Shown here: piece by piece, positions 32,981 to 64,000 of the stretch
Layout: the number at the start of each line of letters is the position of its first letter
Numbering within the stretch: position 1 is the stretch's first letter
IMG/VR virus record: IMGVR_UViG_3300024262_000015
Span: 1 to 64,000 of that record
Strand: one strand, 5' to 3'
DNA from: a virus
Length of the DNA: 64,000 nucleotides
Made by a program: the position numbers and the translations under genes
The notes under the pieces: generated by a model
The model's database searches: none
Told to the model about the DNA's origin: nothing
The model's input: only the letters and a program-made list of their open reading frames with translations

Positions 32981-33469
32981 ATGACGCGAATTGTAGGAAG
33001 CGATTTCGAACTAAAAGATTTTGAACAGTTGAATAATAAGATCCACAAAAAAGCATACCGGCTAGAGGATGTTAAGGATAAGATTGAAAAAGTTGCTTTT
33101 GATGTCGTCCGATTTAAAGAGGACGATGATATCAACAACCTTTGGATAGTTCAGTCTACTGATGATGGGGATGTCATCGTGGGGTTATATGAAGACGCCA
33201 AGCTTCCTGAAAAAAAGGCTTCAGAACATGGGTGGTCTGCAGTCCCAGATAATAAAGGTAAAGAAATTAATATTTATTACCGAGGCGAGCCCATTCATAA
33301 AGTACTTCCTTCTAACTTAGGCGTTCCCTCTCATGAAGTTCATACTCTCTCAACTTCAATCAAAAGAAACTTGCAAAAAAGCGCCTCCTATCGAAAATCT
33401 CTTTTAGCAGCGCTTCCCCTACCCACTCAACAGCGTTTCGTTCGGAAGTACCCGGAACTAAAGGAATAG
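32981..33469 (+). CDS. Putative head-region protein
   Basis: HKKAY, EKVAF, EKKAS, QKSAS motifs; first gene after the intergenic promoter region. Confidence 0.7.
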   Translation: MTRIVGSDFELKDFEQLNNKIHKKAYRLEDVKDKIEKVAFDVVRFKEDDDINNLWIVQSTDDGDVIVGLYEDAKLPEKKASEHGWSAVPDNKGKEINIYYRGEPIHKVLPSNLGVPSHEVHTLSTSIKRNLQKSASYRKSLLAALPLPTQQRFVRKYPELKE

Positions 33470-33471
33470 GA

Positions 33472-35082
33472 ATGAATTTTAATGAGTTAAAAGGTGCTCT
33501 TTCAAGCTTGGCTACTGCTTTAGACAGTTCTGAAAAATTCTTTGCTGGAGCATTAGCACAACGAGCCAAAACCGCTGCATTAAAAGACCCTACCGATAGT
33601 TCGGTTTGTACGGCAGCAAAAGTTCTAGGAGATTGGGCTCAGAAAAAGCCTCTTATTACTCGTGCAGAGCTTAACAAGATTTATGACTCTCTTTATTCAA
33701 ATGGAACTGAATTAGGAGAGATTTTTAAACAAGAGCTTAAGCGGCCCGAGCTTCCTGAACCTACCCGAGCAAAACATGCAGAAGAGGAAGTTTACCTTAC
33801 TCAAGCTAATGCTAATACGGGCGATCCTCTTTTAGTCAATGCCTTACAGTCTTTATTGGATAATGAAACGCCACGTTTTTATTCAAAAGATATGGAAAAG
33901 CAAGCTCAGCGCGCCTGCTTAAATAAGCTCAGCAAAATTGCGGTTTACCCAAAAGACATTTCAGTTTTTATTGGTAGCCCAGATTGTATAATTTGTTCTG
34001 CAGCTTTTGAAACCCCTAAAGGAGTGGCTCATGCTTTAGTTCCAGTTCAGTTTAAAGAGAGCATGGCAATTCCTCCCAACATGTTTTTTTCACCAGTAGG
34101 TTTTGTTGACCTAGATAAAAGAGCAATTGATAACCACGTAAGAGCTACAGGGGGAAAATCATATAAGGTAGATGGTAAGCACCTTCTTAAAGTAATTGCT
34201 ACCGCCTCTTCTCCACTTCAAAAGCCTTTAAATAAAGTTGCATTAGCAGCTTATCAAATGAAAACCCAACAAGGCCAACAGACCATGAGTGGAGATTTGG
34301 TTTATGCGTCCATAGATGAACCAGTCCAAGAGATCACTCCTGCTTTTGATTTAAATCAAGAAGAGCTTACGTTTCAAGAACGGCTTAATACGCCAATTGG
34401 AATTGCTCAACATCTTCATGGTAAGCAAATTGTTGAAGCCGCTTATAATTCAGTTTTAAATAAATTAGCTCTTTATAAGTACAGCAATCCTCAAATCTCT
34501 TTGCAAAATGTAAAAGAAGACTCACTAGAGTTTGCTGTTTCTTTGGATGGCAATCAGGGAGTTTTAGTTCCTGTTAAGGTTTCTAATGGACTAGTTGTTC
34601 CTCCAAAAATTGCCATAGCTTCGGGCAAAATTGCAGCCTTTACTCCTGGTGGGCTAAGGCAACTCACTGCTGGAAAAACTGACGGCAGAGTAATGGCAAA
34701 AGCCTCTGCTGCTTATGGATCAAAGCCTCAAGAAGTCTTTGGGCTTTTTGAGAAAGCACTCTTAGAAAATAAAATATCTGTGGCTGAAGAACTCATTAAT
34801 GTTCTATCTACTCAGGATATTGGACTTTACCGCCAAGCTGTAAAGAAGATAGGCAAACATTTTTCTGGAGAACTGGTTAAAGAAGCCTCCGAAGAATCCA
34901 TTACTAAATGCTCTTTTGTTATGAACCACGCTCATTCTACTGAATCTTTGTGTGGACACTTGAATTTGCCTTTAACCAAAGTATACCAAGATGATAATGG
35001 TGATTGCCGGCCTCTTTATCGAAAAGGCATGAAAGACGCAACTGACCCTGTAGCTTTCATTAATTATCGGATGTATCTTTAA
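33472..35082 (+). CDS. Putative head-region protein with duplicated beta domain and C-terminal Cys/His cluster
   Basis: Two LVPV...PP units; LVKEAS then C...CGH...C. Confidence 0.7.
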   Translation: MNFNELKGALSSLATALDSSEKFFAGALAQRAKTAALKDPTDSSVCTAAKVLGDWAQKKPLITRAELNKIYDSLYSNGTELGEIFKQELKRPELPEPTRAKHAEEEVYLTQANANTGDPLLVNALQSLLDNETPRFYSKDMEKQAQRACLNKLSKIAVYPKDISVFIGSPDCIICSAAFETPKGVAHALVPVQFKESMAIPPNMFFSPVGFVDLDKRAIDNHVRATGGKSYKVDGKHLLKVIATASSPLQKPLNKVALAAYQMKTQQGQQTMSGDLVYASIDEPVQEITPAFDLNQEELTFQERLNTPIGIAQHLHGKQIVEAAYNSVLNKLALYKYSNPQISLQNVKEDSLEFAVSLDGNQGVLVPVKVSNGLVVPPKIAIASGKIAAFTPGGLRQLTAGKTDGRVMAKASAAYGSKPQEVFGLFEKALLENKISVAEELINVLSTQDIGLYRQAVKKIGKHFSGELVKEASEESITKCSFVMNHAHSTESLCGHLNLPLTKVYQDDNGDCRPLYRKGMKDATDPVAFINYRMYL

Positions 35083-35089
35083 AGGAAAC

Positions 35090-37176: not shown

Positions 37177-39280
37177 TGATTATTTCAATAAGCAAATGGA
37201 AGCTCATGGGCCTTCCCTTCCTCGACATCTGTTAGAATCTTTTACGAGAGAGGCAGAAGTAATGTCTGAATTGGGAGTTAAGTGCCCAGAAGACCAGTCT
37301 CTTTATTTTGCTTTATCTCAACACGTTCCAGTTATTTTAAAAGAAATTGCAGCCGGGAACTTTGAAAAACAAGTAGCTAATTGTATTTGTGATGTTTTTC
37401 AAAAAAGAAAAGAACTTCCATTAAATAACTTAAGAGAATGGTTTTATTCCGTATCTAAAGTAGGAGACAAGCTAGGCATACCACTAAATTCAGGGGCAAA
37501 ACAGCTTCTTATAAGTGGGCCAACATTGCAAACAAAAAAGGAAATGATGGACAAAACAGCTTACCCTCAAGGCTCCATAGGAAAATATGTTCCTCCTCCC
37601 TATAATGTTTATAAGTGGGTTGAAGCCAGTCAGTCCTTACACATTCTAACCACCAAAATAGGCTTTAATGATGCGTTCGCCCAAGTTACTCAAGCTTGGA
37701 AAAATGATGAAATAGAAAGCTTTCAATACTGGCTAAGATTTTATGGCTCTGGCGAAGAAGTAAAGTACAAACTAGCTCAAGCCCAAATTCCTATAAACCA
37801 ATTGCGAAGTTCTCTACCACCCTCTACCATTTATCCTCCTCACATTCAGTCCCAGCAAGCAGCCCCGGCCCCCTCTTGTGTTATTGAACATACCCCTAAT
37901 GCTCGACCAATGTCTCCCGTACAGGTACAGTCTTTACGAGTTAAGATTGAAAACCAACGTCAGAAAATAATAAGTCGCTTAAATGCAGCCGAACGTTTGC
38001 TTACTACTCCTGAAGGCCAAATTTTTTGTGGAAACAGTTTAGGAGAGTGTTTAAAAATTCTCCATGAACTTAAACTTAAAATTCAAACGGCCCAAAAAAT
38101 AAGCGTGTCTTCAACTTTATTTGAAGATTTCATTTATCGAACAGCTAATTTATTAAAAGCCTCTGGACGCCCTAAGCTAGGTAACTTTTTTGTTAAAGTA
38201 GCACAAGCCCAAATTCCTGCCTCGCCTCCAGATGCAGCCCCTCCCTCAGACCCAGCAGCCACACCTGCTGGCCCTGGTATGGACGCCACCTTTCCTCCTA
38301 TGGAAGGAGACATGGGGCTAGAAGGAGAGGGTGCCTTTGCAGATGAGGAGCCAATGGATAAGGCACCTTCGGAATCTGAGGAAGAAAGCAAAAGCGATGT
38401 AGCCTCTAATACTAAAGGTGCTAATAAAGAGTTTTTTGCCAATCTTGAATCAGGTCCGGATATGTCTTTGCTTGATGACGAAGATACTCCCAGAAAACGC
38501 CATAAAAAAGCTGATATCGAAGTTACGGCTCAAGCTTTATTGCCCGGCCAAACCCAAAATGTTCCAACCCCTGTTCCTGCACGCGCCCCTCTTGCTGCAC
38601 CCGCTCCCCCACCGGACATTCAGGTTTCTGCACCGGCCGAAGAGGTTGTGGTTACTGAAACGGCTCCACTCCCCGGTGAAGAAGAAATAGTCGTAACAGA
38701 AACTCCTCCTGGTGAAGTAGATGAAGCTTTAGAGGCGGTTCTTTCTTCGGTTACTATTGAAGACGTACTTGAACGATTAGAAGAAGTCGAAGGAGAATTT
38801 AAACGTCGCGACACTGCAAGAAAACTTTCTATTATCGATCTTATGATGAATCGTCTTGGGATTGTTGGATTCTTCCCATCTTTAGGAGAATCAATGGGCA
38901 AGGCTTTAGAAGCAAACCAATACATCAGCACTCGCCTAGAAGACATCACCTCTCGTATCCGGGCTGCTGTAGAAGAAACTCAACAAACAGGACACCAGCC
39001 AAAGGTTCTTACTCCAGAAGCTAAAGCCTTGAGAAAAGAGTTCGATAGACAAGATGATATTGCTAACCTTCGACGTGAAAAGCGCCGAGCAAAAGAAGAT
39101 AAAAAGCTGTTGGGACCCGAAGCCGGACCCACAATGGAACAGCTTCAATCTGAACTTGCTCAACCCCTTAATGTAGAGGCCCCACCCGCTCCTCCAATTA
39201 ATCCCGGTGAACATGTGGCAACAGTTCCAATGACCGCTGCCCAAATAGCTCCACCGCCTGCACCAGTACCAGGAGCATAA
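37148..39280 (+). CDS. Large Pro-rich putative internal head protein
   Basis: DKTAY, YKLAQ, VKVAQ and HKKAD separate helical and low-complexity segments. Confidence 0.7.
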   Translation: MRMKKMRKINDYFNKQMEAHGPSLPRHLLESFTREAEVMSELGVKCPEDQSLYFALSQHVPVILKEIAAGNFEKQVANCICDVFQKRKELPLNNLREWFYSVSKVGDKLGIPLNSGAKQLLISGPTLQTKKEMMDKTAYPQGSIGKYVPPPYNVYKWVEASQSLHILTTKIGFNDAFAQVTQAWKNDEIESFQYWLRFYGSGEEVKYKLAQAQIPINQLRSSLPPSTIYPPHIQSQQAAPAPSCVIEHTPNARPMSPVQVQSLRVKIENQRQKIISRLNAAERLLTTPEGQIFCGNSLGECLKILHELKLKIQTAQKISVSSTLFEDFIYRTANLLKASGRPKLGNFFVKVAQAQIPASPPDAAPPSDPAATPAGPGMDATFPPMEGDMGLEGEGAFADEEPMDKAPSESEEESKSDVASNTKGANKEFFANLESGPDMSLLDDEDTPRKRHKKADIEVTAQALLPGQTQNVPTPVPARAPLAAPAPPPDIQVSAPAEEVVVTETAPLPGEEEIVVTETPPGEVDEALEAVLSSVTIEDVLERLEEVEGEFKRRDTARKLSIIDLMMNRLGIVGFFPSLGESMGKALEANQYISTRLEDITSRIRAAVEETQQTGHQPKVLTPEAKALRKEFDRQDDIANLRREKRRAKEDKKLLGPEAGPTMEQLQSELAQPLNVEAPPAPPINPGEHVATVPMTAAQIAPPPAPVPGA

Positions 39281-40200: not shown

Positions 40201-40708
40201 AAAAAAATTAGTAAAACTTGCAGTCATAAGAAAGAATCATGAAGACGGATGTCCTTTTGGTTTAGATATTCCTATGGGATGCGAGGCTGCTGGTCAATGG
40301 ATTGATAGACTGGCTCCATTAGATGCGCTTCCAGATCTCACTGAAGAAGAGAAAACACAAGTTAAAGATCAAAACTTAAGACTTGTGGTGTGGGGAATTA
40401 TGCAAAGTGGACCGGCTTCTTGTAGATATGCCGGACAGCTTCTACCTCAATTTAACGGTGTGCAATGTACCTATGGAAGCACTGTCCCTGGTGAAAAGGG
40501 CAATGTCCCACTTAGAGGCACGCCTTATTTTGCAAGAATTATGAGTGGGATCGGATTAGATTCCCTTTATAATGTCCCAATGGGGTTTTATTCTGATAAC
40601 ACAATGCGTAACGGATATTATGCGCAGTATTCCTTGCAAGGAAGTTGTAAGTTAGAGGATGATATACTAGTTAAAGAAGGAGAAGATGAAAAACTCAAGT
40701 CTAAATAA
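40190..40708 (+). CDS. Cys-rich hypothetical protein
   Basis: LVKLAV; CPFGLDIPMGC...C...C. Confidence 0.7.
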   Translation: MVCKKKLVKLAVIRKNHEDGCPFGLDIPMGCEAAGQWIDRLAPLDALPDLTEEEKTQVKDQNLRLVVWGIMQSGPASCRYAGQLLPQFNGVQCTYGSTVPGEKGNVPLRGTPYFARIMSGIGLDSLYNVPMGFYSDNTMRNGYYAQYSLQGSCKLEDDILVKEGEDEKLKSK

Positions 40709-41026: not shown

Positions 41027-41881
41027 ATGCCTAGTCACCCCGGAATCCCTGCTCGTCCCCCAAACACTGCGCCTCGTGCTCCTGCTGCACCCAGATTTCC
41101 AGGTGCCGATTTAAACAATCTTGTAGTTTTGGAAGGGCCTCCAGCGGCACCTGACAACAATAATCTTTTGGTTGTTCAAGAGTCCGCTACTCAACCCAAA
41201 TCTCTACCTGGAGAAAGGTCTGGAGAGCTTTCTGTTGATGAAGATTCCGAAATTGTTTTAGATGAAGATATTTGGAATTGGAAAGAAAATGGTTTAGGTG
41301 GGTTTTTGAAATGGGTAGCTAATCGTTTAGAGACTGTACCGGCTCATGATGGAAAAAAAACTACAGGTCTTGAAAGAGCCATTGCTTATTTTGAGAGAAT
41401 AAACAAAGAGATTACAGGAGCAATGCAGCAAGATTTTAGAAATCAAATCAATACTGCTGAAGCTGAAGTTTACAGAGACCAAGTGGAAGATGGTCTTGAG
41501 AGCCTACTTAAGCGTTTAAATCAAGTAAGAAAATCTAAATTTAAGCGGTACCGAAGAAATGATAATCAGCCTGAAGGCATTGTAAAGGAAGCAGCCGGGT
41601 CAACAGCTATTCATGGTATTATTGTAACGGTCCCTCTTATCATTTCTCGAATTGCTCGGGTATGTATTAACGGAACTGTAGCCTCTGGTCATAGCATTGA
41701 GGATAGTTTTTGGCGTCTTTCAGAAAAATATGAACTCACCAAAAGAGAACGTGCTGAGCTTGAACAGCTTCTAGCGGATATGGGCTATTGGATCCGAAGA
41801 GATAGAGGCTACCTTCTTGATGAAGATATCGTGCCCTCCTCTGTTGATAAATTCGACTGGCAGAGCAACGTAAACAGTTAG
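41027..41881 (+). CDS. Putative head-region protein
   Basis: TAAGGA RBS; DLNNLVV/DNNNLLVV; IVKEAAG junction. Confidence 0.7.
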   Translation: MPSHPGIPARPPNTAPRAPAAPRFPGADLNNLVVLEGPPAAPDNNNLLVVQESATQPKSLPGERSGELSVDEDSEIVLDEDIWNWKENGLGGFLKWVANRLETVPAHDGKKTTGLERAIAYFERINKEITGAMQQDFRNQINTAEAEVYRDQVEDGLESLLKRLNQVRKSKFKRYRRNDNQPEGIVKEAAGSTAIHGIIVTVPLIISRIARVCINGTVASGHSIEDSFWRLSEKYELTKRERAELEQLLADMGYWIRRDRGYLLDEDIVPSSVDKFDWQSNVNS

Positions 41882-51893: not shown

Positions 51894-54188
51894 ATGAATG
51901 AAAAAGAGCAATGGATAAAGTGGGCAGCCGAAGATTTAAACAATACCTCCGATGATGATATTGTTAAAATGGCCGGAGTTATACGGCGCTTCAAAAACTG
52001 GTGGAGAGTTTTATTTAGTCCAGAATATCGAAGAGATCTAACGGACTTAGAACGAGAAAGCGCACAGTTTTTGGAAAGCATGGATGTCTTAGGGAAAAAC
52101 ATTATTCCTAAGCTTCAATCGGCTATTAAAGATAAAGACACAGAGGACTACCGGTTTTATATAACTGAACTTAGAAAATACGTTCCTGTTCTTCAAAAGC
52201 AATTAGCCAATCTTGGATCTTCCACCGAGTCAGCCATCGCAAATGTTCCTGTAGATATGGGCAACATTGAAAAGGGCAAAATAACAAAAGTTTATCGTGT
52301 ATCTAGAGACGATTTAGAAGACCCAGAGATATTAGAAAAACTCGAAATACAACGAGAAGAAGCTGGTTTTGATATCCCCCTTAATATTAAAATAAATAAG
52401 GACTTTAATTCCTTTGATTGGATTCAGGATTTAGGTAGAGATAGTATTAAAATTCAACCAAAAGCGTTAAATCAATTAATATCTGACATCATAATAAATC
52501 TACCTATGCCAAGCGAACGAAAAGCTGCGCAAAGCTTTCTTCAAAAATATAAAAATACAGAACTTACAGAAGATATTAAAGATGCTGTGTGGGATGGAAC
52601 GCTATTAAGTGTAGAACATGCAACAGGAGAAAAAGGCAAACGTTCTGCTAATGATCTTTTTTACTATATTGATGCTACTTTAAAAATTGATCTCCCAGAT
52701 ATTCAAGTTACTTTGCCGGTAACATTTAGAGTTGAAGATCCCAGCCTTACCTCTAAACCTACAGGATTAGATGTAGTAAATATATTTAAGCAAACTGGGG
52801 CAGATATCAAATTTACTAACCCCGTCGCTCTTGAGCTTATTGTTGAAGAGGAGTCAGAGCCCAAATCACGCAGCAAAGGTAAAAGCAAAAGCAAAAGCAA
52901 AAGCAAAAGCAAAAGCAAAAGTGTTGATCTTCCTCAGACTTCGGAAGAAGGGAAGGAAGGAGAGGCAGGGGAGCAAGAAGATGACAAGAAGGAAGATGAT
53001 AAGAAGGAAGATGGTGGTGGTGTTGAATTAGAATTTGATGATGTGGCAATAGATGAAGCTGCTTTAGCAGAAAAGGCTCGGGGACGTGCTGAAGCTGGAG
53101 GGACCATCTTTGATTCGTTTCTTACAAAGCTAGGTCAACAAAATTTTTTAAACTACTTAAACCAGCCTGCTCCAAGCAAATCTGTAAACCAGCCTGCTCC
53201 AAGCAAATCTGTAAACCAGAAAGCTCCTATCTCTGAAAAAGAGGTGGTGGTTAAAGATAAAGAAGGAGATGCAGCGATAGGAACATTTAAAGGAGAGCTT
53301 GCGGTTTTTCTTCCAGACCAAACTAGAGTTGGAGGCACAAAAGCCTGGAGAAACAATAACCCTGGAAACTTACGTTTGCCTACTGCATGGAAATTTTATG
53401 GCGCTGTAGGACGTGGCGGAAACATGGCCATCTTTCCAAATTTAGAAGCGGGTCGAGAAGCCTTAGAAAAATATATTCAGGTTCAAGGCATTAACAAAAA
53501 CTTTACTATTGCTAATTTTATAAAAATGTACGCCCCTGCTGAAGATTCCAATGACCCGAAGAGCTATGCAGCGTCAGTAGCTAGAGATCTGGGAGTGTCA
53601 GTTAACGCCCCTTTAAAGGGTCTTAGTATACCTGAGATTGCCGATGCCATTACTAGAGTGGAAGGATGGAGGGCTGGCCAGGTGCTTGGACCTACAGCAC
53701 CAGATGAGCCAGCTTCTACTCAAGAACGTTGGGCTCAATTTGATAATGCTAAACAAAATAAGCTTTTGATTAATGAACTTAATTCTCTACAGAATTTTTT
53801 TACCCAAGCCTCACCGGATGAAAAGCGCTTTCAAAAAGAGTTAATTCGCAGATCGTTGCCAGAAACCATTATCTCTATAAAGATAGGATCTCCTGATTAT
53901 CCACCTTACGCTTTAAAGGTAGCTGACGTAACTCGTTCAGCTTTAAGAGAGGAGCTTGGGGCAGAAGTTTCCATTAAAGGTGAGCCCAAAAGCTTTATCA
54001 TTGAGGCCGCTCTTCATGGCAGTCCTTCAATTGTTAAGAACGCTGTGAAAGAAGTTTGCTTAAGTATAAGTAAAAATTTTAATACTTTAAAACCAATAAC
54101 TTTCAATATAAACAATAGTACCGAGTCAGATTTACCGCTTATTAACTACGAGGATATGGAATGGCAACTGAACAAACTAAGAAGCTAA
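51894..54188 (+). CDS. Multidomain virion protein with lysozyme-like (RNNNPGN) domain
   Basis: AGGAG RBS before ATG 51894; AWRNNNPGNLR...AIFP..EAG..AL...TIANFI..YAP..SNDP.SY...AI..VEG at ~53320-53670. Confidence 0.75.
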   Translation: MNEKEQWIKWAAEDLNNTSDDDIVKMAGVIRRFKNWWRVLFSPEYRRDLTDLERESAQFLESMDVLGKNIIPKLQSAIKDKDTEDYRFYITELRKYVPVLQKQLANLGSSTESAIANVPVDMGNIEKGKITKVYRVSRDDLEDPEILEKLEIQREEAGFDIPLNIKINKDFNSFDWIQDLGRDSIKIQPKALNQLISDIIINLPMPSERKAAQSFLQKYKNTELTEDIKDAVWDGTLLSVEHATGEKGKRSANDLFYYIDATLKIDLPDIQVTLPVTFRVEDPSLTSKPTGLDVVNIFKQTGADIKFTNPVALELIVEEESEPKSRSKGKSKSKSKSKSKSKSVDLPQTSEEGKEGEAGEQEDDKKEDDKKEDGGGVELEFDDVAIDEAALAEKARGRAEAGGTIFDSFLTKLGQQNFLNYLNQPAPSKSVNQPAPSKSVNQKAPISEKEVVVKDKEGDAAIGTFKGELAVFLPDQTRVGGTKAWRNNNPGNLRLPTAWKFYGAVGRGGNMAIFPNLEAGREALEKYIQVQGINKNFTIANFIKMYAPAEDSNDPKSYAASVARDLGVSVNAPLKGLSIPEIADAITRVEGWRAGQVLGPTAPDEPASTQERWAQFDNAKQNKLLINELNSLQNFFTQASPDEKRFQKELIRRSLPETIISIKIGSPDYPPYALKVADVTRSALREELGAEVSIKGEPKSFIIEAALHGSPSIVKNAVKEVCLSISKNFNTLKPITFNINNSTESDLPLINYEDMEWQLNKLRS
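52881..52922 (+). repeat. (AAAAGC)n microsatellite encoding (KS)7
   Basis: Six perfect copies plus aaaagt. Confidence 0.95.
53158..53219 (+). repeat. 27-nt tandem duplication encoding NQPAPSKSV
   Basis: taaaccagcctgctccaagcaaatctg x2 plus a partial third copy. Confidence 0.95.
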
Positions 54189-54484: not shown

Positions 54485-54771
54485 TGTTGGAGAAACTGAG
54501 AAAATTAGCTCAATCTCTTCGGGAGGCTGGGGAAAACGAGCTTGCTGATGGGGTTTGTTGTGCTTTTGCAGCGCTTAGTGGCCAAAAACGTCCCCAAGTA
54601 GACTTAACTTTCTCATCAGTTTTAAGAGACTTAAGAAAAAAATCCCCTGAAAACGTTCGACCGTTCCAAAAGTTATTTAAAGAAAAGTTTGATGAAGCGT
54701 TAATAGCAGAAATTGATGATCCAGAAGAAGCCGCCCTAATGGAGTGTATTGGAAAGGGTAATTTTGTCTAA
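54484..54771 (+). CDS. Small helical head-region protein
   Basis: TAATG-coupled; LRKLAQ.L...GE.ELAD. Confidence 0.7.
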   Translation: MLEKLRKLAQSLREAGENELADGVCCAFAALSGQKRPQVDLTFSSVLRDLRKKSPENVRPFQKLFKEKFDEALIAEIDDPEEAALMECIGKGNFV

Positions 54772-55959: not shown

Positions 55960-56583
55960 ATGATGATTAAACGCGCTTATTCTGTCCAAATGTCTTTTGA
56001 TATTCCTGATGAGCAAAAGAATATTGCCCTTCAAGCTAAAAGAGCCTTCGAAGAGGTCATAAGTCGTCTTCGAATTGCTAAGCGATATTTAAATAAAATC
56101 TACGAACCATTTTCAGACTTAAAAGAATCTGACCCGGATGAAATCTACCAACACCGTTTAGTTTTTAGACGATATAGAAATCAAGTAAAGGAATATTATC
56201 AAGAAGTTTTAGCTCAAATACAGAAGGCCACTCTTTTAATGACTTCATTTTCTAGTGATTTGGATGTAGTAGAAATGTTGGATTCGTTTGCAAATATTGT
56301 TCATTATTTAAAAGATGATGTAAATACTTTGCTTGGTGATTTCTCTCAATTACGTAATCCTAAATTCCCTGAACTTTTAACTAAAGACATAGATCAAATT
56401 AAAGAAGACACAGATGAGATAAAGGAAATATTAAATGATAGAGTTTTAGAATACTTAGACACTAATATTTTGGCAAAGAATTGGATTAGCGGTATAACAA
56501 ACGAAGAAAGTACTAAGTTGTTTGAAAACTCTCCACTAATCGTTGAGCTTTTCAAGGAACGACAAAAGGTGTTAGGAAAATAA
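55960..56583 (+). CDS. Helical head-region protein
   Basis: Starts MMIKRAY. Confidence 0.7.
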   Translation: MMIKRAYSVQMSFDIPDEQKNIALQAKRAFEEVISRLRIAKRYLNKIYEPFSDLKESDPDEIYQHRLVFRRYRNQVKEYYQEVLAQIQKATLLMTSFSSDLDVVEMLDSFANIVHYLKDDVNTLLGDFSQLRNPKFPELLTKDIDQIKEDTDEIKEILNDRVLEYLDTNILAKNWISGITNEESTKLFENSPLIVELFKERQKVLGK

Positions 56584-56735
56584 TGGGTTTCATTAAACGC
56601 TCTGAAGGTCAAATAAAGAAAGTTGTAAAGCTTGATACGACTGAAGAGCAAGTTCAAGAAAAATTAGACCACCTAAAAGAGTCTTTAGGTATGGCGGAAG
56701 ACGAGCCTAAAGAAGAGGAGCAAGGTGCTAATTAA
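56583..56735 (+). CDS. Small protein (50 aa)
   Basis: Not on the track. TAATG overlap, AGGA RBS; MGFIKRSEGQIKKVV...EEEQGAN. Confidence 0.65.
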   Translation: MGFIKRSEGQIKKVVKLDTTEEQVQEKLDHLKESLGMAEDEPKEEEQGAN

Positions 56736-59700
56736 ACTTGGTGAAGCTCAAGAAATTAATCCGGCCTTTAAAAATGCTGATGAATTAGACCCTAATGCAG
56801 TTGAGGGCTCTACTGCCCAATATTTTAAGTCTTTTGGTGAAGGGAAAAGAATAGCCCCTAAAGCAAAAGATTTTCTTTATTTTACAGCCGTTATGATGCA
56901 TGCGGCCGAAGCTAGTTTGCTTGACGATCTTGGTACTTTTAAATGTGGTACAGACGGAAAGCCTTTAACTTCATATTGGGATAAAGGCGGGAACTCTTGG
57001 AAATGGGTTTGTTCTGATACTAACATCAAGCCTCTCAAAAATAATAATTGCTTCCCGCCTGGTACAAAAATATTGCTTGCTAATGGCTCTTCCAAAAATA
57101 TAGAAGATATTCAAGTAGGCGATGAGGTAATTACTCATAAAGGGCGCCCGCGAAAAGTACTAGAAACCTTTGTTACAGAGCATGATGGAGAGCTTTTAGA
57201 GTTAAAAATTAAAAACAATATATCTCTTTTTTGTACTTCAGAGCATCCATTTTATAATGTAGATTTTGATAATTTTAAAACCCAACGTCGTGGTTTAAAG
57301 CCCTTAACAGATAGGAAACGAAAAACCAACGGTGATTTTCAACCCACCTTTAAATTTACTCCTGCATCAAACTTGCAAGAAGGCGATCTATTAACATCTC
57401 CCCGTATTCATTTACACAAAGAAGCAAAAGATTTAAATCCTAATAGAGCTTTATTGTTAGGATATTTTGCTGCAGAAGGTTCTTTTTCTAAAAAATACGG
57501 TAAACGCCAATCGGCTGTCTTTACTTTAGGTATTACTGAAGAGGCAATTGCTGATACAATTAAAAATATTTTTGCCGAAGAGTTTCCAGAATGTTCAGTA
57601 CTTGTTACTCCCGAACCTTCTAGATCTGTAATTAGAATAACCGCTACAGGTCAAAATATAGCTGAGTATTTTTATCACTATGTAGGAGAATATTCAGATA
57701 GAAAGGTTCTCCATGAAAACCTTTGTTTCTCCTCTGATGAAAATAAAAAAGCTTTTCTCACTGGCTGGCTAGATGGAGATGGTTGTCTTTCTGATAATAA
57801 CAAGCTGGTAGGGATCACCACATCACCAGATCTTGCTTTTCAAGTACGTACCATTCTTCATTCATTAGGTATAAATAACTCCTTACGCCGCAATCTATCT
57901 CCCGGTAAAGTAACAATAAATAAACTTTATGGAGAATATGATGCAAAAGACCATTACAGAATTGAAATTTATGGAAATGGTTGGAAAGAAATTGGACTAG
58001 AAAAAACTAGTTCAAAATATGATTTTAGTTCTACAAAACTTTGTCAAGAAAGAAACTCCTTTACTCCCGATTATGGCCTTCATTATTTAAGAAAAATAAA
58101 TCGGATTCCATTTTCTGGGAAAGTTTATAATTTTGAGGTAGAAGAAGATCATTCATATTTGGCTGATAGCATCGCCGTACATAACTGTGATATATTTCCT
58201 GAAGAAGAATTGCTTCGAGCCCATAAAAAGTGGGTAGGAAAACCTTTGTGTTTAGACCACAAAAGCTCTTCGGTAGAAATGGTCCGAGGTATTATTGTAG
58301 ATACTTATTATGACCAAAAACATAAAAGAGTAGTTGGTCTTTGTGCTTTAGATAAAAAAAATTATCCTGATTTAGCTCGTCAAGTAGAGGCCGGATATTG
58401 CAATTCCGTCTCCATGGGCACCGCAGTAGGAAGAGCAATCTGTACTGATTGTGGGCGGGTAGCAAAGAGTGAACAAGAGCTTTGCGGCCACATGAAATCC
58501 AAAAGCTGTTACGGCGAAATCAATGTGGACCTAAATCCAATTGAGCTTTCTATAGTAGTTAATGGTGCAGATCCAAAAGCAAAAATTAAGCATATTATTG
58601 CAAGTCAATTAAGACAAGCCGAAAATCTGGACGCTGCACTAGCCGAAAAGATTTCTCAGGGCAAAGAAATTGATGATACAGAGCTAAAGGAGTTAAGGGA
58701 AGGATTACAGAGTTTGACCGATAAAGTTTCATCATTATTAGGAGATGAGCCTACTGATGAACAAAAACTTTATAATACAACAATCGGACCAACCAGATCT
58801 GTATCTTATATGACATCTCCTCAGGTAGAGCCAGCAGGCACCCTCGGAACAGTCATGAAATTTCCCGAACCTTTCCCAACGTATGCATCTCAAGTTACCA
58901 AGCATGAACTTACAGGACTTAAAAAGAAAATGGCTAAACTCCAAGGGAACTACCAAAAGCTAACAAACCAAGTTAAGGAATCAGAAATGTCGCAGCACAA
59001 AAAGGCTTACTTTCAGGGTGGGGGAGGCGTAAATGAGCCAGAACCCAATAAACAAGGACTACGGTATCCCAATACGGTAGATGCAAACTACATTCGGGAT
59101 CACGAAGATAAACAAATGGTGGGCCGTCCCCCGTTTCCCGGAGTAGGGCCTATTGATGGTCTTTATGGTGGAGGCCAGGAGCTAGAGCTTAAAAATCATC
59201 TCCAGCGTTTAGCGTCAGAAATTGAAGATCGAAAACTGCGCCGTGAAGCAGCCGCCAAACAAGCTGACAACAAACAGGCCTATTATCAAGGCGGCGGTGG
59301 TGTAAACGAGCCCGAGCCTAATAAGCCCGGCCTGCGTTATCCAAATACCGTGGACTACGAGTATATTCGAGACCATGAAGATAAACAAATGGTTGGGGCT
59401 CCTCCCTTTCCTGGAGTTGGCAACATTGATGGTCTTTACCCAGGCGATTTGCAACTAAAAGAAAAACTTCTTCGAGCAGAACTTAGTGCGCGTTTCATTA
59501 AAGCCTCTCTTCCTGATGGTAGTGCAGATCAAGGCGGCTCTCGATGGGATGTATACGCAAAGAGTGATGACAAGGATCATCTTATCCTAAGTGCTACGGT
59601 TAACGAGATCACAAAGGGAAATGCGACTTCTCTTTTTGAAACCGTTGCTACCCGCGACTTTGGTAAAAATCTAATCACTCAAATTCGTCGAGACGGCTTT

Positions 59701-61482
59701 GAGACAACGGCCGCGCGAATTAAACAAGCTCAGCCTGCTCCGGTTCAAGCTCCCGCTTTGGGACCATTGCCGGGACAAGCAGCCGGTCAGTTCCAGCCTC
59801 CTCCTGCGCCCCCTGCACCTGCTGGGCCGCCGGTAGGAGCTATGCCTGGAATGGATCCTGGTGCCATGGTCGGAATGGAAGGTCTAGAGGTTATTGAAGA
59901 GCCTCTAGCGGCTGGAGTTCCGGAAGAAACTATTGATCAATTAGCTTCAGAGGTTCGTGGGCTTGCTGAACAAACCGCACGTCGAGCATCAGATCTTGAA
60001 GAAGGAGTCATGGCTCTTACTGGTGAGGCTCCTGCTCTAGAAGAGGTGCCCCGTGCTGGTGAAGAGGAATTCCTGGAGGCAGAGGTTGGTCTGGAGCAGC
60101 CCACTGTGGCCTCGCTTCAAAGCATGCGCAAATCTCTTCATCATTGGATCCGTGAAGGAATGGAAGATGGAATTTCCCGGCTTAACAATCATACAAAAGA
60201 ACTGGAGATTGCATACAAAGTAGCTCGTAATAATTCTTCAGACTTTACCCCTCAAACCGGTCGTCATTTTGTTGGCCTAGTAAAAGAGGCTCTGGAGTCT
60301 GCTCATCGTTCTTTGGAGAGCACTGCTGATATCCAAGATGCGTTTAAAAAATATGCACATGGAACGGCTGGCCTTTTAAAGAGAGTAAAACAAGCTGCAG
60401 ACGTAGCCGAGGAGGAGATTCAAACCATGGACAAATATTCCGATGAACGGGATGCGCTTCTAATCGCTATCGCCGCAAAAAAGAAAAAGACCACAAAAAA
60501 GAAAGCGCCGTCTAAAAAGGGTAAATTGCCCCCTTGGCTTCAAAAGGATAAAAAAGATCTTGATGCCCAGGAACACGATGAAGATGGTGGCGAAGATGAT
60601 GCCGCTGATGGGCGATGTGGAGATAAAAACAGCGCTGCAATGAAACTAGAACTAGGACCTGATGCTCTAAAGGGTGCCAAGGTTACTACAGCCGCTCAGC
60701 TTGCTGCTCGTTATGACCTACAAACCAAAGAAGGTCGTGCCGCTTTCCGCTCTAAGTGTGCTCAAACTGGCATCAAATGGGCTCCGATTCTAGACGCCGC
60801 TCATCCCGATGGCTCTGCAGAACTTGAGTTCAAATTCCCTCATTCAACCATGAAAGGGGTAATGAACGATATCCGTGAGACTCATAAGAGAATGATGGAT
60901 GTTGTTGAAACCGAACCTAAATATGATCGTGACTCAGCACATGACGAAGGTGGAGATCGTAATACGGTATACGCCGCCAGTGATGCCCGAGATATTCATA
61001 AGATGGTTTCAGAAGGACGCCTTGATGCTTCAGAGGTAGATGGGTTGGCCGCTTTTGGTGTCGATCAAGAGGCCATTAATTACTATAAGAATTACTGGGC
61101 AGAAGCTGGGGATTCCGAAGCTACTGAGTTTGCTAAGCAACTAGTAGAAAATTATACGTCAGATAAGACCGCTCAAGATAACCAGGCAACGGAAGCTCGC
61201 CTAAAGAGAGCGTATGATTTGGCTTATGAAATGCGTGATAAAAGCATTATCGATAAAGAACAAATCCCAAATCAAGTTAAAGAAATCTTGTCTTGGAATG
61301 ATGAAGGTTACGAAAGTGTCAAGAAGATTGTTGCCAAACAATCAACCGGACAAACAAAAAATGCCATGCCTCAAGTGGGCTTTATGGACTCAGAAAAACT
61401 TATGCTTCCAACCCAAGAGGCTCCGCAAACCAGCGATCTAAAAGATTTGCTTAGCCAGTGTTTCGCCAATCGTCGCTACTAA
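56725..61482 (+). CDS. Prohead protease fused to a long scaffold-like region (intein-containing)
   Basis: After splicing: NNN-CDIF.EEEL...GKPLCLDH...RGIIVD...VSMG...CTDC...CGH...IELSIV..GADP (PH/assemblin-fold protease with His and Ser), then ~850 aa of repeats and coiled coils. Confidence 0.85.
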   Translation: MLIKLGEAQEINPAFKNADELDPNAVEGSTAQYFKSFGEGKRIAPKAKDFLYFTAVMMHAAEASLLDDLGTFKCGTDGKPLTSYWDKGGNSWKWVCSDTNIKPLKNNNCFPPGTKILLANGSSKNIEDIQVGDEVITHKGRPRKVLETFVTEHDGELLELKIKNNISLFCTSEHPFYNVDFDNFKTQRRGLKPLTDRKRKTNGDFQPTFKFTPASNLQEGDLLTSPRIHLHKEAKDLNPNRALLLGYFAAEGSFSKKYGKRQSAVFTLGITEEAIADTIKNIFAEEFPECSVLVTPEPSRSVIRITATGQNIAEYFYHYVGEYSDRKVLHENLCFSSDENKKAFLTGWLDGDGCLSDNNKLVGITTSPDLAFQVRTILHSLGINNSLRRNLSPGKVTINKLYGEYDAKDHYRIEIYGNGWKEIGLEKTSSKYDFSSTKLCQERNSFTPDYGLHYLRKINRIPFSGKVYNFEVEEDHSYLADSIAVHNCDIFPEEELLRAHKKWVGKPLCLDHKSSSVEMVRGIIVDTYYDQKHKRVVGLCALDKKNYPDLARQVEAGYCNSVSMGTAVGRAICTDCGRVAKSEQELCGHMKSKSCYGEINVDLNPIELSIVVNGADPKAKIKHIIASQLRQAENLDAALAEKISQGKEIDDTELKELREGLQSLTDKVSSLLGDEPTDEQKLYNTTIGPTRSVSYMTSPQVEPAGTLGTVMKFPEPFPTYASQVTKHELTGLKKKMAKLQGNYQKLTNQVKESEMSQHKKAYFQGGGGVNEPEPNKQGLRYPNTVDANYIRDHEDKQMVGRPPFPGVGPIDGLYGGGQELELKNHLQRLASEIEDRKLRREAAAKQADNKQAYYQGGGGVNEPEPNKPGLRYPNTVDYEYIRDHEDKQMVGAPPFPGVGNIDGLYPGDLQLKEKLLRAELSARFIKASLPDGSADQGGSRWDVYAKSDDKDHLILSATVNEITKGNATSLFETVATRDFGKNLITQIRRDGFETTAARIKQAQPAPVQAPALGPLPGQAAGQFQPPPAPPAPAGPPVGAMPGMDPGAMVGMEGLEVIEEPLAAGVPEETIDQLASEVRGLAEQTARRASDLEEGVMALTGEAPALEEVPRAGEEEFLEAEVGLEQPTVASLQSMRKSLHHWIREGMEDGISRLNNHTKELEIAYKVARNNSSDFTPQTGRHFVGLVKEALESAHRSLESTADIQDAFKKYAHGTAGLLKRVKQAADVAEEEIQTMDKYSDERDALLIAIAAKKKKTTKKKAPSKKGKLPPWLQKDKKDLDAQEHDEDGGEDDAADGRCGDKNSAAMKLELGPDALKGAKVTTAAQLAARYDLQTKEGRAAFRSKCAQTGIKWAPILDAAHPDGSAELEFKFPHSTMKGVMNDIRETHKRMMDVVETEPKYDRDSAHDEGGDRNTVYAASDARDIHKMVSEGRLDASEVDGLAAFGVDQEAINYYKNYWAEAGDSEATEFAKQLVENYTSDKTAQDNQATEARLKRAYDLAYEMRDKSIIDKEQIPNQVKEILSWNDEGYESVKKIVAKQSTGQTKNAMPQVGFMDSEKLMLPTQEAPQTSDLKDLLSQCFANRRY
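57049..58185 (+). mobile_element. Intein (379 aa) with LAGLIDADG endonuclease
   Basis: N|CFPPGTKI (A), CTSEHPF (B), LLGYFAAEG and GWLDGDG, KVYNFEVEEDHSY...VHN|C. Confidence 0.96.
58999..59445 (+). repeat. Two ~58-aa internal repeats in the protease/scaffold
   Basis: KKAYFQGGGGVNEPEPNKQGLRYPNTVD...DGLYGG (58999-59172) and KQAYYQGGGGVNEPEPNKPGLRYPNTVD...DGLYPG (59272-59445). Confidence 0.95.
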
Positions 61483-61502: not shown

Positions 61503-63710
61503 ATGTTCAGTGATAACGGTGATCAATACGCCGCCGAAATGGCCAAACTACTAGCCGCTCCCGAAACCCAAGCTCTGTTTGCTGCAGCACGTCGAAAAAC
61601 TGCCTCAGATACAGGACTAGGGAGGCTAAGTTTCGATAAAGTACTAAGCCACTTTATCACTGTAGCTGATTGGTGTGCTGACAATAAGCATGTGAGTCTT
61701 GCAAAGCGTCTTCTAACTCTAGGTATGAGCTTAGATAAAGAACACAGCGGAGCAAAAGACAGACATAAAGAAGCAGCCAGCTTTTTATCAGTAGCCAATG
61801 AACTAGACCGCCCTCTTAAGATTAGCTCTCTAAATGAAGCCGTTTACTGCATAGAAAAGTGTGCAGAATGGCTAGACGAATATACTCCAAATAAACTTGG
61901 AGCATATTCTGAAGAACTAGGCAAAATAGTTTCACTCGCTAAAATCGCCCAAGAAGTAGCAGAAGAAGAGATTTCCCTAACTCCCGATTCAGTCTTAATT
62001 GAAGAGGAGGTTATCACTGGCGACCCCGAAAAGGGCAGCGCTGACGCTCTCTATGGGGTTTTGTATCAAATGGCCCAGTACGCACACAAAAGGGGTCATA
62101 GCAATATTGGTGATAAAATAATTGATATTGCTAATGATTATGCAGACACTCAAGAAATGGATGATACTCAAAAGAAAATGATCCAGAAAGACTCGGCAAC
62201 AGTAGATAATGAAGAGGAATTTATGTCTGCTGCAGCAAAAGTTACTACAAAGATGCCTCTTGAAAGCGCTCATTTGCTTGATCACCATGATATGACCACT
62301 GGTAAAACAACTAACTCTTTAGCTACTTGGACCAAAGAAATGACTGGTAAAGACCTTTCAAACTCTGATGATCAAAACTGGCTTATGGCCTTTGAAGAAC
62401 TAGATGAAGAGGAAGAAGGTATGGATGACGATGGTGAAGAAGAGATGAGCTTTAGCGAAGAAGAGATGAGCTTTGGAGATGAGGATGAGGATGAGGACGA
62501 TGAAGATACCCTCAAGATTGAAGTCGAAGAAATCTCTGATGACCGCGCAAATATTGTTTTTGTAGGTGGCGGACGCTCTCTTCCTTATGAGTTAGATAAA
62601 GACGATGCTATGGGTCTTGCTGCTGCTCTTTGTGAAACCTTTGGAATGGACACAGGTCTTTTTGAGGGCGATGGTGAAGGCGATGAGACAGTAGACTATG
62701 ATCAAGAAGACTATGAAGGCGATAATGTCGTATCTATTAGTCTTATGGAAGAAGACGAAGATGACGAAGATGACGAAGTAGTAGAGCTAGACATGGAAGA
62801 GGCTGGAGGAGAAGGTGTTGCCGGAGCCCTCTCAGCTATCCTAAAAGAAGTTGGCGCTTCCGATAGGCTTCGAGAAAACCTCTATTCTTACGGTGCTAAA
62901 GAGAAAGAGAAAAAGAAGAAGAAGCCTAAAGCTAAAGATCGAGGGTATGTAGTTTTCAAAGCTACCGACAATGATGTAAATGATAACAAAAACCATTTCC
63001 CTCTTAACTCTGCTGGCCAAGCTCGCTCTGCCTTAAGCTATGCTAACGTTTATAAGAAATCTCCCCCTTGGTATGATGGTAGTCTTAAAAGCCTCCTAAA
63101 GAAGGTCGCAGATGCCGTAAAACGCCGCTCTAAGGAAAAAGGCTGGGGTATCGAGGTTAGCCCAGCGTCCTATAAACCTGGGGCTGCTAAAAAAAAAGGT
63201 AGCTTAAGCAATTATGGGCTAAGAAAAAGAGCAGAAGATGAAGATGATGAGCGTGATTCTATCCAAAAAGCTAAAGATAAAGAAGAAAGCTTAACTTTTG
63301 ATGAACGAAGAGAGAGGATGTGGAACGAAAGAGTTAGTGCTGGTAAATACCACCAATTATTCCAAGATTTAGATGCTGAAATTGTTACTCTTGCAAATCT
63401 TGGAGACGTTTTCGAAGGCAGGAGTGATAAATTTGTAACAAAAAAAAATATAAATCAAATAAGGGCGGCTGTAGACAAATCTAATGGGCGACTTTGGGAC
63501 TACTTTTATACAATTCTTCCTGGCCATCATAAAACTATCGGAACTCCAACGTGGCTTTTCTATAATTTAATGCCCAAAGAATTGAATCTTACTTACGATC
63601 ACGACAAACGTATGAAAGGCTTTTTAGAAAAAGCCATAGCAGTTATACAAAAAAACATTAATGAAAATGTTGAACTCTTAGAGAAAGAAGAAATAGCTTC
63701 TCTCTCTTAG
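61503..63710 (+). CDS. Acidic multidomain head-region protein with DUF6582-like domain
   Basis: RKTAS, AKIAQ, RKRAE; long D/E tracts; RGYVVF...D.KNHFPL.S..QARSALSY. Confidence 0.7.
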   Translation: MFSDNGDQYAAEMAKLLAAPETQALFAAARRKTASDTGLGRLSFDKVLSHFITVADWCADNKHVSLAKRLLTLGMSLDKEHSGAKDRHKEAASFLSVANELDRPLKISSLNEAVYCIEKCAEWLDEYTPNKLGAYSEELGKIVSLAKIAQEVAEEEISLTPDSVLIEEEVITGDPEKGSADALYGVLYQMAQYAHKRGHSNIGDKIIDIANDYADTQEMDDTQKKMIQKDSATVDNEEEFMSAAAKVTTKMPLESAHLLDHHDMTTGKTTNSLATWTKEMTGKDLSNSDDQNWLMAFEELDEEEEGMDDDGEEEMSFSEEEMSFGDEDEDEDDEDTLKIEVEEISDDRANIVFVGGGRSLPYELDKDDAMGLAAALCETFGMDTGLFEGDGEGDETVDYDQEDYEGDNVVSISLMEEDEDDEDDEVVELDMEEAGGEGVAGALSAILKEVGASDRLRENLYSYGAKEKEKKKKKPKAKDRGYVVFKATDNDVNDNKNHFPLNSAGQARSALSYANVYKKSPPWYDGSLKSLLKKVADAVKRRSKEKGWGIEVSPASYKPGAAKKKGSLSNYGLRKRAEDEDDERDSIQKAKDKEESLTFDERRERMWNERVSAGKYHQLFQDLDAEIVTLANLGDVFEGRSDKFVTKKNINQIRAAVDKSNGRLWDYFYTILPGHHKTIGTPTWLFYNLMPKELNLTYDHDKRMKGFLEKAIAVIQKNINENVELLEKEEIASLS

Positions 63711-63744
63711 TTCCTAAAGGGGCGATTGAAGGACCAAAAGTCAA

Positions 63745-64000
63745 ATGATAAAACGCGCTGCCAACATTTCCCCTTTTGAAAAGCTTTGGCTCACCAAGAT
63801 GGGCGATGAAGCGGTAACTCAAATTGACGAAGGAGGGGGATCCGAAGCAGTGACCCAAATTGATGAAGGGACTTTTCCATCAGTTTTGGAAGAGTATAAA
63901 TGGCAAGAAACCGCTACCCATAATCCTGAGCTTCCTGAGCACACACAAGGCCAGCGTATAGCAAAAAAGTTTCGTACCCTCCTTCGCGATACAATGACCC
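63745..64000 (+). CDS. Head-region protein, runs off the window edge
   Basis: Not on the track. MIKRAANISPFEKLWLTKMG..., EAVTQIDEG x2, open to the end of the window. Confidence 0.65.
   Translation, partial: MIKRAANISPFEKLWLTKMGDEAVTQIDEGGGSEAVTQIDEGTFPSVLEEYKWQETATHNPELPEHTQGQRIAKKFRTLLRDTMT

Follow-up and report, generated by a model that had tools for sequence, protein, structure and literature searches.

A Lys-x-Ala motif enriched and conserved in the head-gene block of an uncultured phage is a probable recognition code of its assemblin-fold protease

Herpesvirus assemblins cleave at the consensus V/L-x-A|S, at the R-site and the M-site in pUL26. This polypeptide is described as a protease-scaffold fusion, and the in vivo C-terminal residue reported for the pseudorabies virus (PrV) assemblin is Ala225 (PMC4498786). 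T4 gp21 is reported to cut after L/I-x-E, to fragment the scaffold and to remove 10-residue capsid-targeting leaders, and it carries LIE-9 at its own N-terminus (PMC9026906). SPN3US gp245 is reported to cut after A-x-E (PMC10052503), and accounts of the phiKZ gp175/SPN3US gp245 type (A-x-E, S/A/G-x-E) describe many head and internal proteins that share one short motif, with extra copies within propeptides (PMC10052503, PMC5694885). All of the characterised gp21-type phage enzymes that we found in the literature are described as cutting after Glu. Here we analyze a window that consists of the opening 64,000 nucleotides of one 139,564-bp phage contig (IMGVR_UViG_3300024262_000015). In this window the motif Lys-x-Ala (written K.A, with a dot for any residue) recurs in the proteins of a head-gene block that also encodes a protease-scaffold fusion, open reading frame (ORF) 56725. 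All genes concerned lie on the + strand and are named by their start positions.

To evaluate the motif, we compared its counts with per-protein residue shuffles (400 each), using as the head block 22 proteins (10,308 amino acids, aa) encoded at 33-64 kb and as the comparison a replication block of 44 proteins (10,304 aa). The head block contains 88 K.A against 64.2 +/- 7.4 expected (z 3.2), and related patterns were also in excess, with 36 [LIVMFYW]K.A versus 18.8 expected, 42 K.A[QSYEA] versus 19.7 (z 5.3) and 15 K.AQ versus 2.7 (z 7.7). Control patterns were flat (A.K 58 versus 63.9, KA 51 versus 65.1, K..A 62 versus 64.8), and the replication block showed no excess of K.A (62 versus 54.2, z 1.1) or K.AQ (4 versus 2.2). 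When all gapped tripeptides were scanned without bias, K.AQ was the top x.yz pattern of the head block, and 15 of the 22 K.AQ in the 139.6-kb genome lie at 33-64 kb. K.E was depleted in the head block (35 versus 74 expected). These shuffle counts and flat controls show that the motif is real, that it is confined to the head block as an excess and that it depends on the i,i+2 spacing. A preliminary description of the DNA had proposed K-x-A as a maturation code of the head-region proteins, and every motif instance that it listed was found in the translated ORFs of the genes named there; the enrichment of head over replication proteins that it predicted was likewise observed, in the head block only. 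The K-x-G/S variants that it counted as part of the code showed no overall enrichment (K.[AGS] 178 versus 169.6), and its extension of the code to most head-region proteins was too broad, since 36427, 39281 and 54161 lack K.A and the terminase shows no excess.

We examined the conservation of the motif at several depths of relatedness. A terminase search of viral contigs yielded seven syntenic loci with terminases 50-60% identical to that of the window, together with one (L008) at 33%, and most head-block genes have homologues in these loci at 25-60% identity. At the alignable K.A sites of the window, joint conservation of K and A was 0.36 (n = 35) and ranked 8 of 326 pair patterns. KA reached 0.10 and K..A 0.14, and the conservation of the two residues taken singly predicts about 0.14. 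At kept sites the K and the A stay while the middle and next residues change; these sites are 84 and 30 in the portal, three in the 710-aa protein 37148, 187 in 41027, the N-termini of 40190 and 55960, and 735, 759, 1209 and 1344 in the protease. One of the 37148 sites, FFVKVA|Q, opens a Pro/Ala-rich segment and is the best flank-scored site of the genome. For wider sampling, a profile search, which found 333 protease-bearing contigs, provided 80 further loci on contigs up to 459 kb, with 1154 non-protease + strand ORFs. The closest cultured relative that we found is Bacillus phage G (Donellivirus gee), with identities of 53% for capsid protein gp27 (PDB 6wkk; over residues 44-327), 35% for portal gp14 and 38% for the protease domain of gp19.

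In the portal, the site at aa 84 lies within a Gly/Ser-rich stretch and appears as K.A in 8/9 aligned portals and as KMG in 1/9. In the portal alignment K102 and A104 (alignment numbering) are invariant. Among portals from the 80 loci, K.A occurs 16-42 aa upstream of the core motif in 48 of 52, with K.G only in three and neither in one; the middle residue takes at least ten values and the next residue is free. Phage G portal gp14 has RKMA|SP at the matching place.

The candidate reader of the motif is the product of ORF 56725, which matches phrog_18299 'head maturation protease' (6e-15) and whose gene lies, with its scaffold part fused, between the portal gene (44971) and the capsid gene (~75-77.6 kb). 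Searching with the intein-less N-terminal 340 residues of the homologue from locus L004 (E <= 0.001) gave 1395 homologues, the best 150 of which are mostly 1100-1600 aa long and consist of the protease plus a long C-terminal region. Two residues are candidates for catalysis, the His of CLDHKSS and the Ser of VSMG. All 74 aligned sequences keep H134 and, after it, S185, along with three Cys and Lys5 of the N-terminal M-h-h-K-x-G/A. An AlphaFold (AF2) model of the intein-less L004 homologue (aa 1-340; mean predicted local distance difference test score (pLDDT) 84, core >95) was compared with known structures using VIA-align, and it matched the varicella-zoster virus (VZV) protease 1vzv with Z 10.0 (root-mean-square deviation (rmsd) 2.3, 113 residues aligned), T4 gp21 (5jbl_A) with Z 10.0 (rmsd 2.8, 132 aligned) and the PrV protease 4v08 with Z 9.5. 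Rows 1-36 of the structure matches were all T4 gp21 or herpes proteases, with the other herpes proteases at Z 7-9.5 and unrelated MCE-type structures from Z 6.5, and the best Foldseek match was again 5jbl_A (E 3.5e-3, prob 0.98). The model thus supports the assemblin-fold protease named in the preliminary description, and ORF 56725 is predicted to be an intein-bearing protease-scaffold fusion of the T4 gp21/herpes assemblin fold. By fold and gene context, we place it as a member of the gp21/assemblin proteases.

The scaffold part of this protein carries the motif repeatedly. In the window (aa 701 to the end) there are 16 K.A against 8.2 expected, and the C-terminal 800 aa of those listed homologues that reach 1000 aa (130 of 150) contain 1974 against 1258 (1.57x, z 20), which ranks 2 of 400 i,i+2 pairs, after P.P; there are about 20 K.A per protease-family protein. 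R.A is also up (1.32x). Because KA (0.97x), K..A (0.90x) and K...A (1.13x) are not enriched in the family, helix periodicity and plain Lys/Ala richness are excluded. Flanking preferences in the family are F/R/I/L at P5 and V/I at P4, and Y (3.5x), Q (3.2x) or S (2.2x) after the Ala. When 113 intein-free members were aligned, K.A occupied 19 columns in at least 1/4 of the sequences, about 12 of them spread along the scaffold. These hot columns include the K-K-A that opens internal repeat 1 (58% of the 113 homologues), the K-Q-A that opens repeat 2 (59%), which is partly conserved as KEA, KKS, AKG and RRA in relatives, and the scaffold K-C-A-Q (76% of homologues), which reads VKLAQ in L003-L005. 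The scaffold K-Y-A is kept as VKYAYGTA in L003-L005, with a family consensus of FVKYAxG. Of the 150 listed homologues, 120 have a protease N-terminus in which x-G (90) or x-A (30) comes directly after the first Lys of residues 1-9, and K-x-G dominates there although K-x-G/S is flat overall; residues 1-12 of the model are coil with pLDDT ~63. A complex prediction that paired protease residues 1-300 with portal residues 84-124 (K102-x-A104), made without controls, scored 0.01 and 0.30, where the mark is 0.32, and speaks neither for nor against a complex.

We also investigated whether the motif is concentrated near protein N-termini. When the ORF-caller starts were used, K.A within the first 30 aa was elevated in the head block (8 versus 3.4) and also in the replication block (14 versus 5.8), so a first-30-aa test is not specific. 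Within residues 2-12, using the starts of the preliminary description, K.A was present in 7 of 22 head proteins against 1.24 expected (p ~0.001), compared with 3 of 46 early genes (2.0 expected) and 4 of 69 genes beyond 64 kb (2.7 expected), and the controls A.K, KA and K..A showed no excess. A head-specific N-terminal enrichment stands for residues 2-12 and not for the first 30 aa. Three of the starts used (48029, 51894 and 61503) fall at Met codons inside the longest ORFs. Locus L003 has K.A in residues 2-12 of 5/15 ORFs (0.87 expected) and L004 of 4/14 ORFs (0.92 expected).

Individual N-termini show how far these short tags, which resemble the capsid-targeting sequences of T4, are shared. 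In 55960 the K.A at residues 4-6 is present in 5/5 aligned homologues, with R, K, K, H and L as the middle residue. The 50-aa ORF reads MLIKTGDAE, MGFVKKGDAE or MLVKTGDAE in relatives, with K.G in residues 2-12 in 9/9 family members and with a similarity to the protease N-terminus that runs for ~16 residues; between the other tags only 5-6 residues are held in common. Relatives of ORF 63745 begin MIWKQA|S, MIFKRG|S or MSRIFKQG|S, and K.[AG] is found in residues 2-12 in 54% of 69 family members. The site of 40190 is LKLAE in two homologues and a shifted KVLAN in one. For the acidic protein 48029 homology is too weak to align, and K.A lies in residues 2-12 in 62% of 64 family members; in relatives, the protein after the portal starts MSTDKYAQ, MTDFTKEAQ or ..MEKEAQ. 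The N-terminal sites of 51828 align with LR[HT]AA and V[RK][VI]AG in five homologues, often with Arg for Lys. Relatives carry leaders of the forms MxKxAY[YF]QGT (a small protein), MVEKxA[QY] (the 41027 family) and M..K[YE]AQ (the protein after the portal), and sequence comparison indicates that the window has partly lost such leaders. The small ORFs L003:5622, L004:5174 and L005:4147 start M-x-K-x-A-Y-[YF]-Q-G-T, a peptide that is absent from the window counterpart 39973 and that equals the opening of both protease-scaffold repeats (K-x-A-Y-F-Q-G-G). A DNA-level cause of the MIKRA starts was considered and rejected: genes 55960 and 63745 agree in just ~12 bases at the start codon, and their upstream sequences have nothing in common.

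The same signal was detected in the wider sample. Across the 80 loci, K.A numbered 2754 against 2217 expected (1.24x, z 11.4, rank 7 of 400), and in residues 2-12 it was present in 187 of the 1154 ORFs against 72 expected (z 14), or 282 against 119 for K.[AG], with the controls depleted (KA 61 versus 81, A.K 35 versus 73). The N-terminal signal held when residues 2-30 alone were shuffled (z 15.7). In these tags residue 3 is the most frequent place for the Lys, and the Ala is followed by Q, S, Y or A. In phage G, the head block gp4-gp21 (18 proteins, 4929 aa) has 53 K.A against 26.1 (z 5.4) and 32 K.A[SQYNTAG] against 9.9 (z 7.5), compared with 27 K.A against 24.7 in the next 42 genes (gp22-gp64). 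Mycobacteriophage Catera gp94, a homologous 1369-aa protease fusion, has 18 K.A against 8.2, and its neighbours show little. The capsid protein of the lineage (phrog_2522, 1.9e-78) carries TL[VA]-K-[YF]-A-[AS]-[VI]LEEN near residue 25 in the window lineage, a pattern present in 84 of 120 homologues, all >80% identical, and the phage G capsid protein is without the 43-residue N-terminal segment that bears K-Y-A.

What we observed directly is the excess of the motif, its spacing and head-block specificity, its conservation at three depths of relatives and its positions, together with the modelled protease fold and its invariant His and Ser. Within proteins, the motif is found at N-termini, ahead of the portal core and many times over the scaffold part of ORF 56725. 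Judged from the sequences, we consider it probable that K-x-A is the code by which the phage's own capsid-maturation protease (ORF 56725) recognizes its substrates. The scaffold, the portal, small core proteins and large internal proteins would co-assemble into a prohead, in which the protease would then cut at K-x-A, reading Lys as P3 and Ala as P1 with a free middle residue. The scaffold part would be broken up at the ~12 conserved sites, the portal would lose ~86 N-terminal residues, and short M-x(1-8)-K-x-A leaders would be trimmed off several head proteins. These leaders would probably also be the contact that brings proteins into the prohead, like the T4 capsid-targeting sequence. In T4, a leader with the double role of targeting and being cleaved away is documented (PMC9026906). 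We infer cutting, the cut after Ala and the targeting role. For the propeptide-bearing polyproteins proposed earlier, the position of the motif is the sole support.

Several observations weigh against this reading. The raw K.A excess within the window is modest (~23 sites), and large head proteins show none: 47930 has 9 K.A against 9.2, 61458 has 6 against 6.2, 37148 has 5 against 4.6 and 51828 has 6 against 5.6. The expectation that the motif be conserved in homologues was borne out in the portal, 37148, 41027 and 55960, but K.A is not kept at site 7 of 54484, at sites 16, 1000, 1165, 1187 and 1222 of the protease or at site 232 of 51828. The distant locus L008 has no K.A excess (30 versus 31.0); it shares the protease N-terminus VLIKLGEA with the window and has K-M-G at the portal site, and the motif may differ in its lineage. 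The N-terminal tags are not independent of one another: crude single-linkage clustering, with longest-ORF starts that visibly add false N-terminal residues in some members, gave 24 families of at least five members, in which half or more of the members carry K.A in two families and K.[AG] in six, compared with 0-1 families for six control patterns; 17 of 152 small families hold a tagged member. In all, the tags make up only some 6-8 families. The mature capsid protein is not K.A-depleted (125 versus 131.8, 120 homologues), so there is no avoidance signal. A flank profile from the protease family separates the head-block K.A sites weakly (Mann-Whitney p 0.11 versus early and 0.04 versus late genes), and we dropped it as a substrate predictor. 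No Pfam protease family, including Peptidase_S77, matches ORF 56725 up to E = 1. A literature search turned up no cleavage data for this phage or its relatives; the phage G study (PMC12484599) provides detection lists only, with no peptide tables in its supplements.

An alternative that we regard as unlikely, though deserving of weight, is that K-x-A is an uncut short linear binding motif that docks head proteins to the scaffold, the portal or the capsid interior. Its excess, conservation and placement at N-termini and linkers fit binding as well as cutting, the K-x-G that prevails at the protease's own N-terminus (in 90 of 150 homologues listed) might be a variant used for docking, and the undepleted capsid protein agrees with docking. 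However, the ~12 conserved sites along a scaffold that must leave the capsid fit fragmentation better, and a P3-x-P1 layout with a free middle is what this protease fold is reported to read (PMC10052503, PMC9026906). The T4 leader, moreover, is described as both binding and being cut (PMC9026906), which makes docking more a sub-case of the protease code than an alternative to it.

Cleavage might also occur otherwise, either after the Lys (K|x-A) by a trypsin-like cut or by a host or second phage protease. HK97 gp4 cuts after Lys, the sequences fit a cut after Lys equally well, and the rise of R.A (1.32x) and the Arg that replaces Lys at some aligned sites are typical of a basic specificity pocket. 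Phage G, moreover, encodes ClpP/ClpX, and both are listed among the proteins detected in its virions (PMC12484599). Against this, Ala is as conserved as Lys, which is hard to reconcile with an enzyme that has Lys at P1, except one that also reads P2'. The motif goes with this protease family in the window's relatives, phage G and Catera, and Pfam and PHROG searches of the window's head block showed no ClpP homologue; we judge such a route still less probable than docking. The least credible account, to which we give very little weight, assigns the motif no specific function and attributes it to the usual composition and secondary structure of helical scaffold proteins rich in Lys and Ala and to inheritance among homologues. 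Head proteins are indeed rich in K, A, E and Q, the window-only excess is modest (z ~3), K.L is somewhat enriched near the proteases (1.20x), and homologous families inflate pooled counts. The excess is nevertheless i,i+2-specific, with KA, K..A, K...A and A.K flat or depleted; K and A are invariant around a free middle residue, in Gly/Ser-rich segments that are themselves poorly conserved; the same signal appears in lineages of only 30-40% identity, phage G among them; and the N-terminal signal survives the local shuffle of residues 2-30. Helix periodicity as a cause was ruled out separately, since KA, K..A and K...A are flat in the window and/or the protease family.

With the protease code as the preferred reading, the locus can be set against the described systems. 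It resembles T4 gp21 in fold (in the model), in a three-residue motif with a free middle that is shared by scaffold, portal-proximal and internal proteins, in short leaders on unrelated proteins and in a motif copy at the protease N-terminus that parallels LIE-9. It differs in reading Lys-x-Ala rather than Leu/Ile-x-Glu, in a protease fused to a ~900-aa scaffold, in the lack of a Pfam Peptidase_S77 match, in leaders as short as 5-6 residues and in candidate sites that are known from sequence alone. Like phiKZ and SPN3US, the phage has a large head block rich in proteins of unknown function, whereas those systems cut after Glu and here K.E is depleted and Ala is the conserved last residue. As in prohead-protease systems, one short motif is above chance, conserved and present in several head proteins, and shared leaders of the kind used in T4-type targeting are found in the window, in the 80 loci and in at least six K.[AG] families. 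Because the conserved last residue is Ala and K.E is depleted, the locus is by motif a variant, not a member, of the one-short-motif head-protein systems that cut after Glu. Likeness to the assemblins extends from the modelled fold (1vzv, 4v08) to a protease N-terminal to the scaffold in one polypeptide and to Ala at the last conserved position, followed by Y/Q/S, with Ser the commonest next residue in phage G (12 of 53). Unlike in assemblins, P3 would be Lys/Arg rather than hydrophobic, the scaffold has many sites rather than two, and the phages infect bacteria. Phage G is alike in its head-block K.A excess and unlike in its stand-alone 300-aa protease and its 498-kb genome.

If the protease code is true, Lys-x-Ala would be a new specificity for this fold, and our literature searches found no Lys-x-Ala rule for phage head proteases. 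The rule would be common to a large clade, mostly known from uncultured phages, to which the only cultured megaphage belongs, and it is directly testable in phage G. Packaged head proteins would be predictable from sequence, with the phosphatase-domain and cell-wall-hydrolase-type-domain proteins among the candidates in the window; foreign proteins could be loaded into capsids with a very short tag; and phage and herpesvirus proteases would be linked by specificity as well as by fold. A bolder version, which we offer tentatively and find doubtful, is that the 5-6-residue leader M-(hydrophobic)-K-x-A is a minimal portable signal for loading into the prohead followed by removal, with an assemblin-like cut after Ala and use throughout the clade. 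Such a leader would span a very large clade of big phages (the 1395 protease homologues, contigs to ~480 kb, phage G) and make virion cargo readable from sequence, and Ala-P1 specificity would then be old in the gp21/assemblin lineage rather than a herpesvirus speciality.

Table 1. Genes, inteins and K-x-A sites of the head block, with positions in the window
Feature	Position	Strand	Match or conservation
Several unknown-family proteins	32981-43056	+	
Large terminase, gpA-type	43064	+	Pfam
Portal protein, 1005 aa	44971..47988	+	phrog_16240 portal, 5e-44
Portal intein (about aa 368-774)	~46072-47292	+	LAGLIDADG_3 match
Very acidic protein, 1318 aa	47930-51886 (start in preliminary description 48029)	+	
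786-aa protein, endolysin/tape-measure-type domain	51828-54188 (start in preliminary description 51894)	+	
Small proteins	between 51828 protein and phosphatase-domain gene 54749	+	
Dual-specificity phosphatase-domain protein	54749-55939	+	Y_phosphatase2, 3.5e-14
207-aa protein directly before 50-aa ORF/protease	55960	+	
50-aa ORF	56583-56735	+	
Protease-scaffold ORF, 1585 aa including intein	56725..61482	+	
Protease intein (aa 109-486)	57049..58182	+	Hom_end_hint, LAGLIDADG_3, Intein_splicing matches
Acidic protein, 750 aa	61458 (start in preliminary description 61503)	+	
ORF 63745, runs past window end to 64128	63745	+	
K-T-A|YPQ in 710-aa protein 37148 (aa 136)	37553..37561	+	PK[IL]AYPQ in 3/3 homologues, ~30% identity
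K-L-A|Q in 37148 (aa 208)	37769..37777	+	KLA[ST] in 3/3 homologues
FFV-K-V-A|Q in 37148 (aa 350)	38195..38203	+	FF[FY]K[IL]AQ in 3/3 homologues
L-V-K-L-A|V, N-terminus of 40190 (aa 9)	40214..40222	+	
V-K-E-A|A in 41027 (aa 187)	41585..41593	+	[VT]K[NE]AQ in 4/4 homologues
Second basic-M-A site in portal extension (SPKMA|K, aa 30-32)	45058..45066	+	N[KR]MA[KR] in 8/9 portals
K-L-A in Gly/Ser-rich portal N-terminal extension (LLKLA|QGSGGG, aa 84-86)	45220..45228	+	
HKRA|E and FLKLA|Q near N-terminus of large acidic protein, if start is 48029	48050..48079	+	
IKWA|A and VKMA|G near N-terminus of 51828/51894	51918..51974	+	
L-R-K-L-A|Q, N-terminus of 54484	54502..54510	+	listed in preliminary description; K.A kept in 0/5 aligned homologues
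M-M-I-K-R-A|Y, N-terminal tag of 207-aa protein 55960	55969..55977	+	
M-G-F-I-K-R-S, N-terminus of 50-aa ORF 56583-56735	56595..56603	+	
K-L-G at protease N-terminus (V-L-I-K-L-G-E-A)	56734..56742	+	Lys is K5
K-M-A after protease domain (aa 735-737)	58927..58935	+	aligns with TKLA|S / TKIA|S in L003-L005
K-K-A opening internal repeat 1 (KKA|YFQGGGG, aa 759-761)	58999..59007	+	K[NTE]AY[FY] in L003-L005
K-Q-A opening internal repeat 2 (KQA|YYQGGGG, aa 850-852)	59272..59280	+	
K-Y-A in scaffold part (aa 1209-1211)	60349..60357	+	
K-C-A-Q in scaffold part (aa 1344-1346)	60754..60762	+	
R-K-T-A|S in 61458/61503	61596..61604	+	high flank score; one partial homologue only
AKIAQ in 61458/61503	61941-61949	+	
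M-I-K-R-A|A, N-terminal tag of ORF 63745	63751..63759	+	

Most head-block proteins had no match in a Pfam search, and no tRNA genes were found in the window. The phosphatase-domain gene lies within the head block and is kept in relatives, and its product is a candidate packaged or ejected enzyme. Residues 502-615 of the 51828 protein match endolysin and tape-measure families (phrog_873, phrog_2276, ~1e-13), which makes it a candidate ejected cell-wall hydrolase; it also contains a (KS)x7 run and the unit NQPAPSKSV in duplicate. The acidic protein encoded at 47930-51886 has EDVTE seven times in tandem. In the middle of the block, 39281-40015 encodes a poly(A) polymerase/CCA-adding 'head domain' protein that has zero K.A and is kept in relatives.

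Both the portal and the protease genes are interrupted by inteins. Portals of the relatives match the window portal contiguously over aa 11-367 and 775-983, and six related portals lack the insert. At its C-terminal end, where the junction reads ...VTVQQQ|SAQ, no terminal Asn is apparent, and the portal intein of L007 occupies a different site from that of the window. The protease intein is of the standard type, with Cys first, His-Asn last and then Cys, and it is absent from the L003-L005 homologues. Its insertion point lies within the protease domain, ~77 residues before the putative catalytic Ser. The terminase ORFs of L003-L005 (L003:8402-11308, L004:8402-11317, L005:8396-11317) encode ~970 aa and contain an insert of ~350 aa that follows the equivalent of window residue 184, whereas the window terminase (615 aa) is uninterrupted; this insert is probably another intein. 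Beyond the window, the capsid gene is in two pieces (75169-75399 and 77115-77594) with two ORFs between them, compared with one 336-aa gene in relatives, and a GIY-YIG-like ORF lies between two conserved head genes (region 64492-65172 / 65285-66406 / 67610-67996). The split of the capsid gene and the GIY-YIG-like ORF look like intron or homing-endonuclease insertions.

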